Shown one piece after another: positions 729-55,357 of a DNA stretch of 64,000 bases (its first letter is position 1; each line of letters starts with the position of its first letter). Both the position numbers and the translations under genes were made by a program. The stretch is from sequence record PX393108.1; one strand, 5' to 3'. Origin of the DNA: a phage. The notes under the pieces were generated by a model. That model was not told where the DNA came from. It did not search any database and worked only from the letters and a program-made list of their open reading frames with translations.

Positions 729-893
729 TTACTCTTCTTTTTCTTTAGATTCCTCTTTTTTCTTTTTAGGAATCTGTTCAGGACCTTTATTTACTACAGC
801 ACCTGACGTTGTTCCAGTAGAGATATTTTCAGGATTACCACCCGAATCTCCAGCTACCATATCTTCTTTAATAAATTCTTTATATGTTTTCAT
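729..893 (-). CDS. Small protein (54 aa), 61.1-like, N-terminus MKTYKEFIKE resembles capsid targeting sequence
   Basis: ORF below 60-aa track threshold, read manually; ATG at 893, stop TAA at 729-731. Confidence 0.45.
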   Translation of the reverse strand: MKTYKEFIKEDMVAGDSGGNPENISTGTTSGAVVNKGPEQIPKKKKEESKEKEE

Positions 894-1907: not shown

Positions 1908-2162
1908 CTATTTTATTTCCTCAAGTTCGTTAATCAATAAAAGTTCTCTGGCGCTAAAAACAAAGAAAAATGTGTTCCCATCAACCAGAGCATGACCGCT
2001 AATAGAACACCCTCTGCGGAATTTAGAAACTTCACAATCTAGAACTGTAAAGGGTTTTAATCCTATGACTTTAGCTGTGCGTCTATTCAGTTCACAACCA
2101 CTCGCGAATTTTTCCAAATCTTCTTCTGATTTAAACTGATATTCTCTATTAACTAGCATCAT
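1908..2162 (-). CDS. Hypothetical small early protein (84 aa)
   Basis: ORF with RBS and own early promoter (GTTTAC ... TATAGT) upstream. Confidence 0.5.
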   Translation of the reverse strand: MMLVNREYQFKSEEDLEKFASGCELNRRTAKVIGLKPFTVLDCEVSKFRRGCSISGHALVDGNTFFFVFSARELLLINELEEIK

Positions 2163-2187
2163 TTTCTTTTCTCCGCGATTAGCTGAT

Positions 2188-2225
2188 AGAATTACTATAA
2201 CACAACTCTATCAGCTTGTAAACTA
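2188..2225 (-). promoter_or_regulatory. T4-type early promoter
   Basis: GTTTAC ... TGTTATAGT on minus strand upstream of ORF 1908..2162. Confidence 0.5.
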
Positions 2226-2483
2226 CTATTTTAAAACTTCTGTATAATCACATGTTACAAACTGTTTCTCTAACTTGACGATTTTACGAAAGTATCTTTT
2301 GCATTGGCGAATCTGCCGCTTTGTAGGGCGCACAGCAAACTTAATAAATTCCACTCGACCAAATGGAGGGCTTTCTTCTGCTGGAATATCTAATACCAAT
2401 TCCCACGTATCTGCGATAAGTGCTTTGAATTGAGTATTTTTCCTGACGTTATACGGAGTAGGTTTAAATAAAACAATATGCAT
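2226..2483 (-). CDS. Hypothetical small early protein (about 85 aa; start moved to internal ATG with GAGGA RBS)
   Basis: ORF 2226..2525 trimmed; ATG 2 nt after dmd stop with RBS GAGGATAA. Confidence 0.45.
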   Translation of the reverse strand: MHIVLFKPTPYNVRKNTQFKALIADTWELVLDIPAEESPPFGRVEFIKFAVRPTKRQIRQCKRYFRKIVKLEKQFVTCDYTEVLK

Positions 2484-2484
2484 A

Positions 2485-2667
2485 TTATCCTCGGCAATCC
2501 ACTTCGCATACTTTCTTGTCATCAATGAAAGCTTTAACTAGCGCTTTATTAACTTCAGCATATTGAGTAGTAGCCCATTGAACGTCATCTTTCATCATTG
2601 TGATTTCTTTAGTAAACATGCTTTCATTCTTAAACCACCCCATAAAAACTACCTTTACCAATTCCAT
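2485..2667 (-). CDS. dmd: Dmd-like antitoxin (discriminator of mRNA degradation), 60 aa
   Basis: 60-aa ORF MELVKVVFMGWFKNESMF immediately upstream of gene 41 as in T4; strong RBS GAGGAG; early promoter upstream. Confidence 0.65.
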   Translation of the reverse strand: MELVKVVFMGWFKNESMFTKEITMMKDDVQWATTQYAEVNKALVKAFIDDKKVCEVDCRG

Positions 2668-44842: not shown

Positions 44843-45316
44843 TTATTTGAATGATTTGACGTACTGAATAGAACCTTTACTATTCACGAAAGCGATTTTA
44901 CCATTCTTATTATACATGGTAGCAGTACGCTGATAGCCATAAGTTTGCTTACCAGATTGATAACCAACTAATGCGAAATTATCTTCACCCATTTTATTCT
45001 GTTTAGCACGAATACGTTCATGACCGTGTGCCATAAGAACCTTAGCATCACCAGTTGAAATTGATCTACGAGTTTTTTCATCTTCAACTGTATTAACAAA
45101 GTCGTCAAATGAATCAAATTTAGCATGGGATTTATTATACAGTTTTCCATCTACTGCATAATTATATCCCTGTACATCCATCTCAACTTCTGTACCATCA
45201 TCCAATACAGCAGTGATTTTTTGACCTTTTTTAAATTTCAAAAGATCAGTAAAAGATTCAGCAATAATTTGAGAATTAATAGCTGCTTCAGTAATAAATT
45301 CTTGATATGTTTTCAT
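44843..45316 (-). CDS. Internal protein (IPIII-like) with capsid targeting sequence
   Basis: 157 aa; N-terminus MKTYQEFITEAA with (I/L)-x-E prohead protease site. Confidence 0.65.
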   Translation of the reverse strand: MKTYQEFITEAAINSQIIAESFTDLLKFKKGQKITAVLDDGTEVEMDVQGYNYAVDGKLYNKSHAKFDSFDDFVNTVEDEKTRRSISTGDAKVLMAHGHERIRAKQNKMGEDNFALVGYQSGKQTYGYQRTATMYNKNGKIAFVNSKGSIQYVKSFK

Positions 45317-45330
45317 GTGTATCCTTTAAT

Positions 45331-45648
45331 TTATTCTTTAGGGAAGTTTTTAGAATATGCATCATAAAGCTTATTTCCAATACGGCGGAAAACTCTAGCC
45401 GCAAAACGATTTTCTGGGTTTTTAATCATGATTTGCATCATATAAGTACCCGCGTCAGAAAGAGCTTCTTCATAGTACCCATTAATTTCTTTAAGAGTCC
45501 TACGTTTACCACCAGGACCATCAACAGTAATTTTCCATTTACCTGTAGAAGTGCGGCTCGGTGGCTCAACTTGTTCAATCCAAATATAACCTCCTTCTAC
45601 ACGTTGTCCTTGGGCAGATTCTGCAATAAATTCTTTATACGTTTTCAT
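45331..45648 (-). CDS. Internal protein (IPII-like) with capsid targeting sequence
   Basis: 105 aa; N-terminus MKTYKEFIAESA. Confidence 0.65.
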   Translation of the reverse strand: MKTYKEFIAESAQGQRVEGGYIWIEQVEPPSRTSTGKWKITVDGPGGKRRTLKEINGYYEEALSDAGTYMMQIMIKNPENRFAARVFRRIGNKLYDAYSKNFPKE

Positions 45649-50400: not shown

Positions 50401-50564
50401 TTTTGTGAAAAAAATTTTAAAAAGTTTTAGGGAATTCTAGGGCAGGGAGGGGCAATTAAAGGATAGGATAATATATTATAAAGGGTAGAAACTAAATGAT
50501 GCCTAGAGAGGTCCAGAAAGGCCTAGATACCAAAAAGCCCTATCATTTAGATAGGGATTTAAAA

Positions 50565-51128
50565 TTATTTATCTAGTTTAGTTATTATAGCTTCTGCGGC
50601 AGCTTTTAGCTTAGATGCAGTGTTAATACGATTTTTAATTTCAGTATACGCATCGCCAAGAACATCAAGGCTATCAGAATAAACACTTACACTATTGCGT
50701 TCGCTATTTGAAATAGAACCTTTAGTTTTACGATCAAAATCGGTGTACACGTCTTGAAGATCACGGGCTGCCTTCTTTGCATCATCCAATGCATCAAGAG
50801 CTTTATTCAAAGCATTAACGTATTTTTTAGTGTCGAACATATTCTTAGAAATTTTAACAGGTGCGCGTTCAGGAGTAGCTAATGCAGATTTAGGAACCTG
50901 AGCGCCAGATGCCAATTTCTTAGAAATTTTGAAAAACGCTTTATTGAATTTATTTTCTTGACTCATCGTAAAAGAACTATTATCGATGTTGTACATTTCA
51001 ATAGCTTTAGCTTTCCACTTAAGAAAATCGCCGCGGTCTTTTGGGTCCAAGTGGAAGAATACTTTAGTAAGATCTGCTTCAGATGGTAATTTTGCTGCTT
51101 CGGTTAAAAATTCGGCATAGGTTTTCAT
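50565..51128 (-). CDS. Capsid-targeting-sequence protein (internal-protein-like), 187 aa
   Basis: N-terminus MKTYAEFLTEAA with (I/L)-x-E site; RBS AAGGAT; GAAA-loop terminator downstream. Confidence 0.55.
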   Translation of the reverse strand: MKTYAEFLTEAAKLPSEADLTKVFFHLDPKDRGDFLKWKAKAIEMYNIDNSSFTMSQENKFNKAFFKISKKLASGAQVPKSALATPERAPVKISKNMFDTKKYVNALNKALDALDDAKKAARDLQDVYTDFDRKTKGSISNSERNSVSVYSDSLDVLGDAYTEIKNRINTASKLKAAAEAIITKLDK

Positions 51129-51215
51129 TTAAAATCCTTGAAATAATTTATCGGTTGGTTATTAATTATTTATTACTTTGTTATTATCCGTAACAGCATT
51201 CTCTATGTGATTCAA

Positions 51216-51240
51216 ACTAAAAACCCCAACCTTTCGGTCG
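51216..51240 (-). terminator. GAAA-tetraloop terminator downstream of CTS gene 51253..51727
   Basis: GCCCCGACC-GAAA-GGUUGGGG followed by UUUUU on minus strand; near-identical copy at 51782-51806. Confidence 0.55.
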
Positions 51241-51252
51241 GGGCTAAGAATG

Positions 51253-51727
51253 TTATTTGATTTGTTTAGCAGACCAAATGCGGTCTTTGATGATTTTTTG
51301 GATGTCTTCAACATACTCTAGGTCATGAGCATGTGGGTTATCTTTGAAACTATAAGCACGAGCTAGTTTTTGGCCTTCAGTTTTGATTACTAAAAGCTCT
51401 TTAAGGATAGCTTCATATTTAGCGATAATTCCTTTAACAATATTTTTTTTCTTGTGCAGCTTTAGGATCTGCTTTAGGAGCAGGTTTACCCGAAGCCTTT
51501 GCAAAAGCAGCACCAGTAGCAACTAAACTTTTCCAGGCCATACTAACCGCATTTCCTGTAAATCCTTCTGCTTTCATGTCGCGAGCAAACTGGAATCGTG
51601 ATTCGTCAGAAGCATCTTTATAGGAATATTTACCCGCTGCAATGGCTGCTTTTGCGACAGCTTGAATTTCGGTGCTAGATGCTTCATTTAACACCGCTTC
51701 ATTTAAAAATTGAGCATATGATTTCAT
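51253..51727 (-). CDS. Capsid-targeting-sequence protein gene split over two frames at an A8 run (possible frameshift or pseudogene)
   Basis: N-terminal frame 51434..51727 starts MKSYAQFLNEAV; C-terminal frame 51253..51522; frames meet at A8 (51443-51450); TATAAATA late promoter upstream; terminator downstream. Confidence 0.45.
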
Positions 51728-51766: not shown

Positions 51767-51774
51767 TATTTATA
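51767..51774 (-). promoter_or_regulatory. T4 late promoter upstream of CTS-protein gene
   Basis: TATAAATA on minus strand about 40 nt upstream of ATG at 51727. Confidence 0.5.
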
Positions 51775-51781
51775 CTAAAAA

Positions 51782-51806
51782 GCCCCAACCTTTCGGTCGG
51801 GGCTAA
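51782..51806 (-). terminator. GAAA-tetraloop hairpin (second copy) upstream of CTS gene late promoter
   Basis: Same GCCCCGACC-GAAA-GGUUGGGG plus U-run as at 51216-51240. Confidence 0.5.
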
Positions 51807-51829
51807 GCCTTGCGGCAACCTTGTCGGGG

Positions 51830-52115
51830 TTCCACCTGCTAAGGCAAGTGTTTGTACGAAACGCCGGGATTCGAACCCGGTTATTAAGCAGTTGACGCTA
51901 CTTAATATTTTTAAAAGGCCATATCTCGACCATATCCGAACGTTCCGTCAAAAACGCTACTCGGCTTACGGCAAAGATATTTCCTCGAATCGATAATTCG
52001 GTGCGCCGTTTCTGCTGTGATGTAAGAGGGCATCAACAAATCATAAAGATTTATTAACACAATTCCTTACTCAGGGAACATCAGTCCGACGACTTACCGG
52101 TAGCGACCCGGTTTC
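51830..52115 (-). ncRNA. Non-coding tRNA-like region, possibly small stable RNAs (T4 species 1/2-like)
   Basis: About 285 nt with no ORF beside the tRNA cluster; contains T-arm-like CCGGGTTCGAATCCCGG and an 8-bp hairpin but no complete cloverleaf. Confidence 0.3.
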
Positions 52116-52466
52116 TTAATATTCTTTTAAAGCATCAATCTGTTCACGACGTTTACGCCATAAATCAATTGCTTCATACGCAGATTCAGCATTTCGAATT
52201 GGACGGCATTTATATAAAGACTTGTGATTTTGATATTGCGTAGATAACGAAATTTTATCTAAAAGGTCTTTACGTTCAAAGTATTCGTAACCATCTAAGC
52301 CAAATGAACGATTTTTGAGAAATTGCCAATGACCATATTCGTTTTCGACATAAACATAATCCGCGTGTTGATAAAGCAAATTAATTACACGTTCAGAAAT
52401 AACAGTGTCATTGTGATTAAAATAAAATGTTAAATCATGAACTACTAAATAAACATTACCTTTCAT
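52116..52466 (-). CDS. Hypothetical protein inside tRNA region
   Basis: 116 aa; RBS GAGGAAAAT. Confidence 0.45.
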   Translation of the reverse strand: MKGNVYLVVHDLTFYFNHNDTVISERVINLLYQHADYVYVENEYGHWQFLKNRSFGLDGYEYFERKDLLDKISLSTQYQNHKSLYKCRPIRNAESAYEAIDLWRKRREQIDALKEY

Positions 52467-52484: not shown

Positions 52485-52560
52485 TGGTCGAGGCAGTAGG
52501 GATCGAACCTACGACCTAGGACTTAGAAGGTCCTTGCTCTTCCTTCTGAGCTATGCCCCG
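52485..52560 (-). tRNA. tRNA-Arg (anticodon UCU)
   Basis: Acceptor CGGGGCA/UGCCUCG, anticodon loop CUUCUAA, encoded CCA. Confidence 0.8.
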
Positions 52561-52564
52561 TAAT

Positions 52565-52640
52565 TGGGGTGACCGATGGGAGTCGAACCCATGACTACGA
52601 GAATCACAATCTCGAGTTCTACCAACTGAACTACGGCCAC
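52565..52640 (-). tRNA. tRNA-His (anticodon GUG)
   Basis: Acceptor GUGGCCG/CGGUCAC, discriminator C, anticodon loop UUGUGAU, encoded CCA. Confidence 0.7.
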
Positions 52641-52753
52641 ATTAATACCTACTCCAACAATCAAGATGTCTTCACACGAAATTAAGAGAAGAGTGATCAG
52701 TTCAACCCTATAATCGCGTCAAGTAGATATTAATGTGACAGTTGTCACAAATT

Positions 52754-52828
52754 TGGCGGACGTGATAGGATTCGAACCTATAACCAATCGCTTAACAGGC
52801 GATCGCTCTGCCATTGAGCTACACATCC
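52754..52828 (-). tRNA. tRNA-Asn (anticodon GUU)
   Basis: Acceptor GGAUGUG/CACGUCC, anticodon loop CUGUUAA, encoded CCA. Confidence 0.7.
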
Positions 52829-52832
52829 AAAT

Positions 52833-52919
52833 TGGTGGGGAGTGATGGAGTCGAACCACCCGAGTCGCAATGACAATGGATTTACAGTCCACACCGCTAC
52901 CTCTACGGGATAACTCCCC
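52833..52919 (-). tRNA. tRNA-Tyr (anticodon GUA)
   Basis: Acceptor GGGGAGU/ACUCCCC, anticodon loop CUGUAAA, long variable arm, encoded CCA. Confidence 0.7.
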
Positions 52920-52932
52920 TTAATTCTTAATT

Positions 52933-53007
52933 TGGTGGCCCTGGGTGGAATTGAACCACCATCTGGCGATTATGAGTCGCTTGCTTGAACCTTCCAGCTA
53001 CAGGGCC
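52933..53007 (-). tRNA. tRNA with anticodon CAU (Ile2-type or Met)
   Basis: Acceptor GGCCCUG/CAGGGCC, anticodon loop CUCAUAA, encoded CCA; T4 tRNA-Ile uses CAU. Confidence 0.7.
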
Positions 53008-53008
53008 T

Positions 53009-53084
53009 TGGTGCTGATTGACGGAATCGAACCGCCGACCTTCTCATTACAAGTGAGTTGCTCTACCTACTGAGCTAAATCAGC
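53009..53084 (-). tRNA. tRNA-Thr (anticodon UGU)
   Basis: Acceptor GCUGAUU/AAUCAGC, anticodon loop CUUGUAA, encoded CCA. Confidence 0.8.
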
Positions 53085-53089
53085 AAAAC

Positions 53090-53179
53090 TGGCGGAGGCG
53101 ATAGGATTTGAACCTATGAGTCGCCGGAGCGACTGCCGGTTTTCAAGACCGGTGCATTAAACCACTCTGCCACGCCTCC
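53090..53179 (-). tRNA. tRNA-Ser (anticodon UGA)
   Basis: Acceptor GGAGGCG/CGCCUCC, anticodon loop CUUGAAA, long variable arm, encoded CCA. Confidence 0.8.
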
Positions 53180-53181
53180 AG

Positions 53182-53255
53182 TCTCCATACAAGGATTTGA
53201 ACCTTGGACCTCCTGATCCCAAATCAGGCGCTCTACCAAACTGAGCTACACGGAG
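53182..53255 (-). tRNA. tRNA-Pro (anticodon UGG)
   Basis: Acceptor CUCCGUG with G-U pairs, anticodon loop UUUGGGA; CCA not encoded. Confidence 0.75.
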
Positions 53256-53265
53256 TAAATTAAAT

Positions 53266-53339
<74 letters not shown>

Positions 53340-53344
53340 AAATT

Positions 53345-53431
53345 TGGTGCGAGAAGTGGGACTCGAACCCACAAGGAAATCATTCCGCAGCATTTTAAGT
53401 GCTGTGCCTTTACCAATTTGACCATTCTCGC
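53345..53431 (-). tRNA. tRNA-Leu (anticodon UAA)
   Basis: Acceptor GCGAGAA/UUCUCGC, anticodon loop CUUAAAA, long variable arm, encoded CCA. Confidence 0.8.
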
Positions 53432-53432
53432 G

Positions 53433-53505
53433 CTGGGAATAAAGGACTCGAACCTTTGCATCCTGGAATCAAAATCCAGTGCCTTACCAACTTGGCTAAT
53501 TCCCA
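53433..53505 (-). tRNA. tRNA-Gln (anticodon UUG)
   Basis: Manual cloverleaf: acceptor UGGGAAU/AUUCCCA, anticodon loop UUUUGAU, T-arm GGTTCGAGTCC; CCA not encoded. Confidence 0.8.
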
Positions 53506-55069: not shown

Positions 55070-55357
55070 TTACAAAAGATTTTTAGCAATAATCTTGAGA
55101 TGTGCCGCAGAAATGTGTTTAGCTTTAAACAACGCAGTTTCTTCAGCAGGAGAGATAATGATTGTAGCACCATCCTTTTTAGCAGACCACCCATCACCTA
55201 GGTAAACAGTACCTTTGATTTCTTCGCCATCAACCAAACTAATCATTGGTTTACCTTCTCGTCCTTTATTTGCTTTAATAACTTCAGAAGTAAGAGTAGC
55301 TTCAGTAATAGTAGAAACCGGGGTAGTTTTTGTAGTAAACTCTTTGAAAGTTTTCAT
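55070..55357 (-). CDS. ipI: Internal protein I-like (capsid-targeted)
   Basis: 95 aa; N-terminus MKTFKEF; position upstream of 57B as in T4; early promoter upstream. Confidence 0.6.
   Translation of the reverse strand: MKTFKEFTTKTTPVSTITEATLTSEVIKANKGREGKPMISLVDGEEIKGTVYLGDGWSAKKDGATIIISPAEETALFKAKHISAAHLKIIAKNLL

Follow-up and report, generated by a model that had tools for sequence, protein, structure and literature searches.

A third locus for tag-bearing, candidate internal proteins between e.8 and the tRNA cluster of T4-like phages

Why should a T4-like phage carry two small genes between e.8 and its tRNA cluster, where T4 has no protein gene, and what might their products do? The question is raised by a 64,000-nucleotide stretch of phage DNA (sequence record PX393108.1; referred to in its full length as the window), for which a preliminary description had proposed two adjacent minus-strand genes, here termed A and B, with N-termini of the kind found on the T4 internal proteins (Ips), and had offered them as candidate anti-defence effectors that are injected together with the DNA. 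The reading favoured here, with moderate confidence, places A and B in the internal-protein class as members so far unrecognised, packaged by means of a capsid targeting sequence (the tag), trimmed by gp21 and injected, most likely to act against a DNA-targeting defence. The parts of this reading differ in strength: packaging and injection, which we infer, are well supported, and an anti-restriction role, with a GmrSD-type target as the most likely, is plausible by analogy. Both of the starts previously claimed, that of A and that of B (from 51727, minus strand), are seen in open reading frames (ORFs). The picture of two adjacent genes was correct for A, which is an intact ORF, and had to be amended for B, which is split in the window: the interval 51253..51727, at 475 nt not divisible by 3, is not one ORF. 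The coding features are as follows.

50565..51128, minus strand: gene A, intact, 187 aa, start MKTYAEFLTEAA
51099..51128, minus strand: targeting sequence of gene A, MKTYAEFLTE, from the ORF translation
51434..51727, minus strand: gene B as read here, a 97-aa ORF with start MKSYAQFLNEAV and end ..QEKKYC*, from the ORF translation
51698..51727, minus strand: targeting sequence of gene B, MKSYAQFLNE, with a second LNE at residues 13-15

The N-termini carry the argument for packaging. Mutagenesis of T4 IPIII has shown that residues 4 and 7 govern targeting to the head and residues 8 and 10 processing, and ten N-terminal residues suffice for loading foreign proteins into T4 heads (PMC9026906). At these mapped positions A and B both carry Tyr4, Phe7, Leu8 and Glu10, so that the prohead-protease-type targeting N-terminus claimed for both genes is borne out, and they share with T4 IPI, IPII and IPIII a 10-residue N-terminal tag with an aromatic residue at 4, Phe at 7, Leu or Ile at 8 and Glu at 10. 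The prohead-protease site (Leu/Ile)-x-Glu is found at residues 8-10, as L8-T9-E10 in A and as L8-N9-E10 in B, which adds L13-N14-E15. Translated in all six frames, the window contains the motif M[KR][TS][YF]xx[FL][ILV]xE 5 times, compared with an average of 0.01 for dinucleotide shuffles; all copies lie on the minus strand, with an ORF continuing from the motif Met (start calls confirmed for 3 of the 5), and their carriers are gp61.1, genes A and B, and the two genes that take the place of ipII/ipIII. The window's IPI orthologue (55070..55357) carries an IPI-type variant of the tag. The tag is also kept in remote members of the A/B family at 20-30% identity, as MITFNEFLNE in P0056, MLNFKEFIAE in KMB19 and MKTYNEFLNE in IME08; M1, F7 and E10 are among only 9 invariant alignment columns, and F7 is invariant in both family alignments. 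Mature A and B would be basic, with isoelectric points (pI) of 9.3-9.5, compared with 9.0-9.65 for T4 IPI*, II* and III*. The phage belongs to Tequatrovirus. Over the 1.5 kb between 50400 and 51900 it shows 99% identity to G50 (an Escherichia phage) and SH-2 (a Shigella phage), and on the strength of this identity it presumably has a T4-type prohead with a scaffolding core and gp21, gene 21 itself lying outside the window.

The other tagged genes deserve a description in their own right. The two at 44.8-45.6 kb, which lie upstream of e, are not T4 IPII or IPIII. One (44843..45316, minus strand) encodes a 157-aa protein assigned to Pfam DUF7412 / PHROG 3155 'internal virion protein', which is also present in T2 and fD1; the other (45331..45648, minus strand) encodes a 105-aa protein of PHROG 3966 (unknown). 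The 54-aa ORF of gp61.1 (729..893, minus strand), beside the primase gene 61, belongs to PHROG 1823 (unknown), starts with MKTYKEFIKE and has an I-K-E site. It sits in an early-gene region and has a full targeting-sequence-like N-terminus; its product may be packaged as a tiny peptide, or the 5' module may have been reused there by coincidence.

Virion evidence comes from Yersinia phage fD1, whose Gp140 is 96% identical to B. By liquid chromatography with tandem mass spectrometry, Gp140 was scored as particle-associated at a strict threshold, as were g129 and g146, the other tag-bearing proteins of the stretch, while several neighbours were not (PMC8309999 Table S3). Because the preparation was unspecific, this detection is weak proof of packaging, supportive and not decisive. 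No peptides from the homologues in Jiaodavirus turned up in the proteome supplements for ValerieMcCarty, a lineage of that genus which has only a 58-aa remnant at the locus, and the fPS phage paper contains no proteomics.

The signals around the two genes bear on when they would be expressed, and also on how the locus came to be built.

51855..51993 and 52000..52119 (span 51855..52119), minus strand: homologues of rnaC and rnaD, respectively, by alignment to T4; coordinates approximate
51781..51804, minus strand: rnaC terminator hairpin with a GAAA loop, the upstream boundary of the gene B cassette; aligns after T4 rnaC
51767..51774, minus strand: T4-type late promoter motif TATAAATA, 39 nt from the gene B ATG (-47), found by motif search
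51222..51245, minus strand: terminator after gene B with a GAAA loop, a second copy of the rnaC-terminator repeat
50538..50556, minus strand: terminator-like hairpin after gene A, with a 7-bp stem, a 5-nt TAAAT loop and a T-run

The late promoter motif claimed for the second gene is present and kept across genera: TATAAATA precedes the B homologues of fD1 (at -48) and Jiaodavirus KP1 (at -44) within differing flanks, and AATAAATA precedes that of Mosigvirus APCEc01 at -37. The count of the motif itself is at chance level, since TATAAATA alone is not over-represented in the window (9 observed, 9.9 expected). The statement that each gene has its own GAAA-tetraloop terminator was right for the hairpin of gene B and wrong for gene A, whose loop is TAAAT; the other GAAA hairpin is that of rnaC. 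The two copies of the 30-nt terminator repeat (51778..51807 and 51219..51248) are 97% identical and flank gene B.

One alternative, which appears quite improbable, is that the products are not packaged at all: the MK(T/S)Y..FL.E start would be a 5' gene module spread by recombination, and the products cytoplasmic accessory proteins. It draws on the DNA of the 5' ends of A and B, which is 76% identical over 42 nt that include the ribosome-binding site (repeat D2), and on the repeated terminators around the cassettes, which promote shuffling; the same N-terminus on gp61.1 in an early-gene region, the unspecific virion proteome of fD1 and the want of a canonical late promoter at gene A are likewise in its favour. 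Against it, the targeting and cleavage residues are kept at the protein level in homologues of 20-30% identity whose DNA has long diverged, a persistence that makes the reading less likely, and the late promoter before B is kept in distant genera. Moreover, because ten residues suffice for loading (PMC9026906), a late-made protein with such an N-terminus would be packaged by default.

How far is the locus peculiar to this phage? Annotation and alignment of the e.8-tRNA-Arg interval show the space from e.8 to rnaC to be free of protein genes in T4, in agreement with the preliminary description, and A and B are both missing from T2 and T6 also. Calling them extra is accurate relative to T2, T4 and T6 only, given that a family at the same locus is found in at least five genera and that A and B are diverged paralogues within it. 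Parts of the 1.5-kb stretch are matched by 676 phage records. The sequence near e.8 that is common with T4 comes after the hairpin at 50538..50556, and the rnaC and rnaD homologues, which lie directly upstream of the A and B cassettes, are well conserved in the alignment to T4 (against Rfam they gave no model at E <= 0.1). In teqhal, which has B only, the sequence after the B terminator equals that after the rnaC terminator in T4; for this reason the T4 arrangement would be an exact loss of the B cassette between the terminator repeats. Arbiol and co-workers reportedly described in 2010 mobile regulatory cassettes of the PeSL type in T4-type phages, with repeated early-promoter stem-loops and recombination at short homologies by which genes can be inserted, deleted or replaced. 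The cassettes described here are similarly bounded by repeated regulatory elements, but the repeats consist of a terminator followed by a late promoter instead of early-promoter stem-loops.

Further upstream, a 116-aa ORF (52116..52466, minus strand; PHROG 3355, unknown) lies between tRNA-Arg and rnaD; it is absent from T4 at that spot and present in T2, G50 and teqhal. The tRNA cluster (52485..53505, minus strand) comprises 11 genes (Arg, His, Asn, Tyr, Met, Thr, Ser, Pro, Gly, Leu and Gln) compared with 8 in T4, and it has neither a tRNA-Ile gene nor the homing endonuclease gene segB.

Are A and B related to each other? Sequence searches with both proteins led to the same family, PHROG 2280 ('unknown function'), the sole database family that contains them (A: E 1.4e-53, residues 1-181; intact B: E 5.7e-60, residues 1-157; truncated B: E 3.9e-37, residues 1-95), with homologues that are all hypothetical and no match pointing to a function. 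The record of PHROG 2280 is without annotation, and the targeting sequence, the conservation of the locus and the two-domain structure are unrecorded there. Compared directly, the two proteins have only the tag in common, with no paralogy detectable by BLASTP or by Smith-Waterman alignment with shuffles (z 0.7-2.0), and a first, shallow comparison of profiles (probability 39%) did not show it. Distant relatives of gene A, retrieved by an exhaustive HMMER profile search that leads to 351 phage records, changed this result: the expanded A profile matches the B profile in hhalign with a probability of 96.2% (E 2.5e-9) over 97 columns, which extend from the final helix of the N-terminal domain across the linker and the hairpin of the C-terminal domain. 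By this profile evidence, A and B are remote paralogues of one family.

Gene A itself is present in 165 phage records and gene B in 512, as a hypothetical protein in every one, probably because the family is missing from T2, T4 and T6; no paper naming RB14ORF136, RB32ORF133c or genes A and B was found in a literature of which coverage was partial. The family occupies the junction of tRNA/rnaC and e.8 in at least five genera of the Tevenvirinae, including Mosigvirus, Dhakavirus, Karamvirus and Jiaodavirus. Mosigvirus APCEc01 and Jiaodavirus KP1 each have a homologue of gene B at this position, the Karamvirus KMB19 member has 216 aa, orf129 of Dhakavirus IME08 is placed exactly between tRNA-Arg and e.8, and the member of Jiaodavirus ATCCa begins with MKFKDFLTE. 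In Jiaodavirus the locus exists with an A-type N-terminal domain (ATCCa, L016 2495..3079) or with a B-type one (KP1, L010 2995..3528); the C-terminal parts of these two differ as well and the downstream gene is 99% identical, which looks like replacement of a cassette or domain. The locus is a conserved third site for tag-bearing proteins in the Tevenvirinae, diversified in a modular manner, with two diverged tandem copies in the lineage of the window.

What, then, is to be made of the split gene B? In G50 and SH-2 the gene is intact, with 474 nt and 157 aa, and alignment traces the frameshift to a single extra A in the window, which reads A8 where these two phages read A7.

51443..51450, minus strand: A8 homopolymer, the frameshift site, located by allele comparison at the domain boundary, within the linker predicted to be disordered
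51253..51442, minus strand: out-of-frame remainder of gene B, coding for what are residues 95-157 in intact B, the C-terminal helical hairpin
50842..50930, minus strand: linker-coding segment of gene A, flanked by an exact 14-nt direct repeat

The 97-aa ORF runs from the targeting sequence through the helical N-terminal domain to the linker; because the frameshift sits at the domain boundary, the truncated product retains the tag and a complete N-terminal domain. A survey of the A6, A7 and A8 alleles by short blastn queries against GenBank phages gave A7 as the majority allele, A6 in SfPhi01, and A8 in the window, teqhal, G28, SF2-1, AUBRB02, PYps55T and others, the allele classes spanning several sequence backgrounds. 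An exact-pattern scan of IMG/VR for the alleles returned one contig only. The extra A may of course be an error of sequencing or assembly in the record, the gene of the phage being truly intact with 157 aa: some platforms typically misjudge homopolymer length, the flanks of the A-run are identical to those of the intact alleles, and the C-terminal coding part is free of further damage. This is rather doubtful, as A8 recurs in GenBank, where no fewer than 9 phage records that differ in laboratory, host and sequence background carry it; there are A6 alleles as well, and 19 public contigs of several sources encode exactly this 97-aa product. A runs are, besides, the classical hot spots of spontaneous frameshift in T4 genetics. 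The A-run is a recurrent frameshift site, and the additional A probably means loss or reduction of function of gene B, which would be tolerated where the host lacks the defence in question. A rescue of gene B by programmed ribosomal -1 frameshifting at the A-run was considered and rejected, the C-terminal frame requiring +1 or -2 (475 versus 474 nt).

A more speculative reading, to which we give very little weight, takes the A7 run as a contingency switch, in which slippage during replication, and possibly during transcription, keeps a mixture of full-length B and a packaged form with the N-terminal domain only. Such a switch would be selected since the strongly conserved C-terminal hairpin could be useful against one defence and sensed by, or harmful with, another, and B would then be a phase-variable injected effector. 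In its wider form this reading would make PHROG 2280 a third, pan-Tevenvirinae Ip locus that inhibits defence variants which T2, T4 and T6 cannot overcome.

Damage to the locus takes other forms too. Within gene A the exact 14-nt direct repeat TTCTTAGAAATTTT (50842..50855 and 50917..50930) brackets the linker, and Shigella phage CT01 (L011:3001-3489), which has no gene B, carries a 75-nt in-frame deletion exactly between the repeats. In OE5505 (L008 1541..1975, 2101..2663) gene B and gene A are both frameshifted, away from the A7 run, and in G29 gene A is in two pieces. A 40-aa predicted protein from a public collection, P0055, combines the N-terminal end of e.8 (MENEMDNYGELF) with gene A's C-terminal helix, which indicates a deletion allele fusing the two in some phage. 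The status of A and B is that of accessory genes, dispensable in laboratory culture, missing in T2, T4 and T6, and recurrently frameshifted or deleted.

Genes A and B are real genes under strong purifying selection. The ratio of nonsynonymous to synonymous substitution rates (dN/dS) is 0.07-0.08 for gene B and 0.03 for its part downstream of the frameshift site (G50 versus APCEc01), and 0.04-0.2 for gene A. The AlphaFold2 model of B, with a predicted local distance difference test score (pLDDT) of 73, comprises, at residues 17-76, a helical N-terminal domain predicted with confidence (pLDDT 85-91), followed by a linker that is disordered (81-93) and by a helical hairpin. Gene A has the same layout, namely the targeting sequence, an N-terminal helical domain, a linker rich in Pro, Ala and Lys and a C-terminal helical hairpin, and its model agrees with low confidence (pLDDT 58, below use for fold search). 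A Foldseek search with the B model gave no match below E = 1 in the PDB and only self-hits among viral structures, a search of PDB chains with the profiles of both families gave nothing meaningful, and scans of Pfam and NCBIfam returned only sub-threshold noise (cytochrome b562, ALIX). Apart from the tag, A and B have no PHROG or Pfam family in common with the other tagged genes compared, those of 157 and 105 aa in the window.

These observations bring forward the main rival, a packaged protein with a conserved role outside defence, which purifying selection favours. A and B would be packaged via the tag as conserved head-internal or ejection-stage proteins, or as injected host-takeover factors; charge neutralisation or condensation of the DNA, aid to its exit, or action on a conserved host target are the roles that may be named. 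Such a role would suit the basic, all-helical two-domain build with its long C-terminal hairpin and Pro/Ala/Lys-rich linker, the very low dN/dS of the C-terminal domain of B together with a fixed place in at least five genera, unlike quickly replaced anti-defence cargo, and the lack of any likeness of the known inhibitors to A and B. It is set against the dispensability of the genes, with T2, T4 and T6 lacking the family and frameshift and deletion alleles common in isolates, which makes a core structural role in particular unlikely; against the swap of A-type and B-type N-terminal domains between ATCCa and KP1, which fits target-driven diversification; and against the record of the T4 Ips, since all those of known function are GmrSD inhibitors (PMC12373910). 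On balance, this rival is judged unlikely.

The comparison with the Ips is thus central to the anti-defence part of the favoured reading. IPI* is said to have been described by Bair and Black in 2007 as an inhibitor of a GmrSD-family enzyme. IPIII was found by Srikant et al. 2022 to be required on ECOR17. According to Silas et al. 2025, Ip1, Ip2 and Ip3, which are mutually unrelated, are inhibitors of one GmrSD type IV restriction enzyme each, a different one in every case, and the same is predicted for other Ips of 'the two Ip loci' (PMC12373910). Since all three T4 Ips inhibit GmrSD, the anti-defence idea becomes more specific, and it is still an analogy for A and B. Like the T-even Ips, A and B are small, basic and non-essential, are encoded on the minus strand of the same 12-kb neighbourhood, and include a gene preceded by a late promoter motif, that of B. 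Unrelated cargo is normal in the T-even Ip set (the Ip4-Ip13 type, 'internal head protein 7' of T2, Ip9 of IME08 and K3), as it is with A and B. They differ from the T4 Ips in their third locus (rnaC/tRNA-e.8), which is neither that of ipI (57B-trna.4) nor that of ipII/ipIII (denV-e), and in forming a two-domain helical family that is present in at least five genera under purifying selection and not in T2, T4 or T6. To IPI*, Ip2 and Ip3 the likeness is one of proposed mode only, namely injection, action before phage gene expression and one inhibitor per enzyme variant; in sequence and predicted fold there is none, and the prediction for B is an all-helical protein that has a flexible linker, whereas IPI* is a compact alpha/beta protein (PMC3012670).

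Under the favoured reading, A and B would be expressed late, B from its TATAAATA promoter and A probably through read-through or a weak variant promoter. The 10-residue N-terminal targeting sequence would bind the scaffolding core of the prohead, and gp21 would cleave after Glu10, and in B possibly also after Glu15, so that the predicted new N-termini are AAKLPSEADLTK for A and AVLNEASSTEIQAVAK or ASSTEIQAVAK for B. The basic mature proteins (A: 19.7 kDa, pI 9.46; intact B: 16.0 kDa, pI 9.40) would remain in the head with the DNA and enter the host together with it, where they would neutralise a first-line defence that targets DNA, a particular GmrSD type IV variant being the most probable target. 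From the frameshifted gene B of the window, only the targeting sequence and the N-terminal domain would be made, giving a mature fragment of 87 aa.

Several points weigh against this reading. The fD1 preparation contained 113-137 of the 277 phage proteins and 672 host proteins, among them enzymes like Tk, DenV and NudE (PMC8309999). The virion evidence covers the homologue of B only, and the packaging of A, the cleavage and the injection are what we infer. Gene A is without a canonical late promoter, having only AATAAATA at -46 (GATAAATA in phage CT01). Under strong purifying selection and at a fixed position in five genera or more, the family is unlike the hyper-variable classical Ip loci, and selection of this strength, which is not usual for fast-changing Ip cargo, leaves room for a role outside anti-restriction. 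Finally, no likeness in sequence or fold to IPI*, Ip2, Ip3 or known anti-defence proteins was found; as Ip1-3 are themselves mutually unrelated, the missing likeness to them says nothing on function.

The present analysis thus identifies an unannotated, tag-bearing and widespread family, missing in T2, T4 and T6, whose members are new candidates for injected anti-defence proteins. Some deposited genomes carry frameshifted alleles, and for therapeutic T4-like phages the host range may depend on which of the A and B genes are intact.

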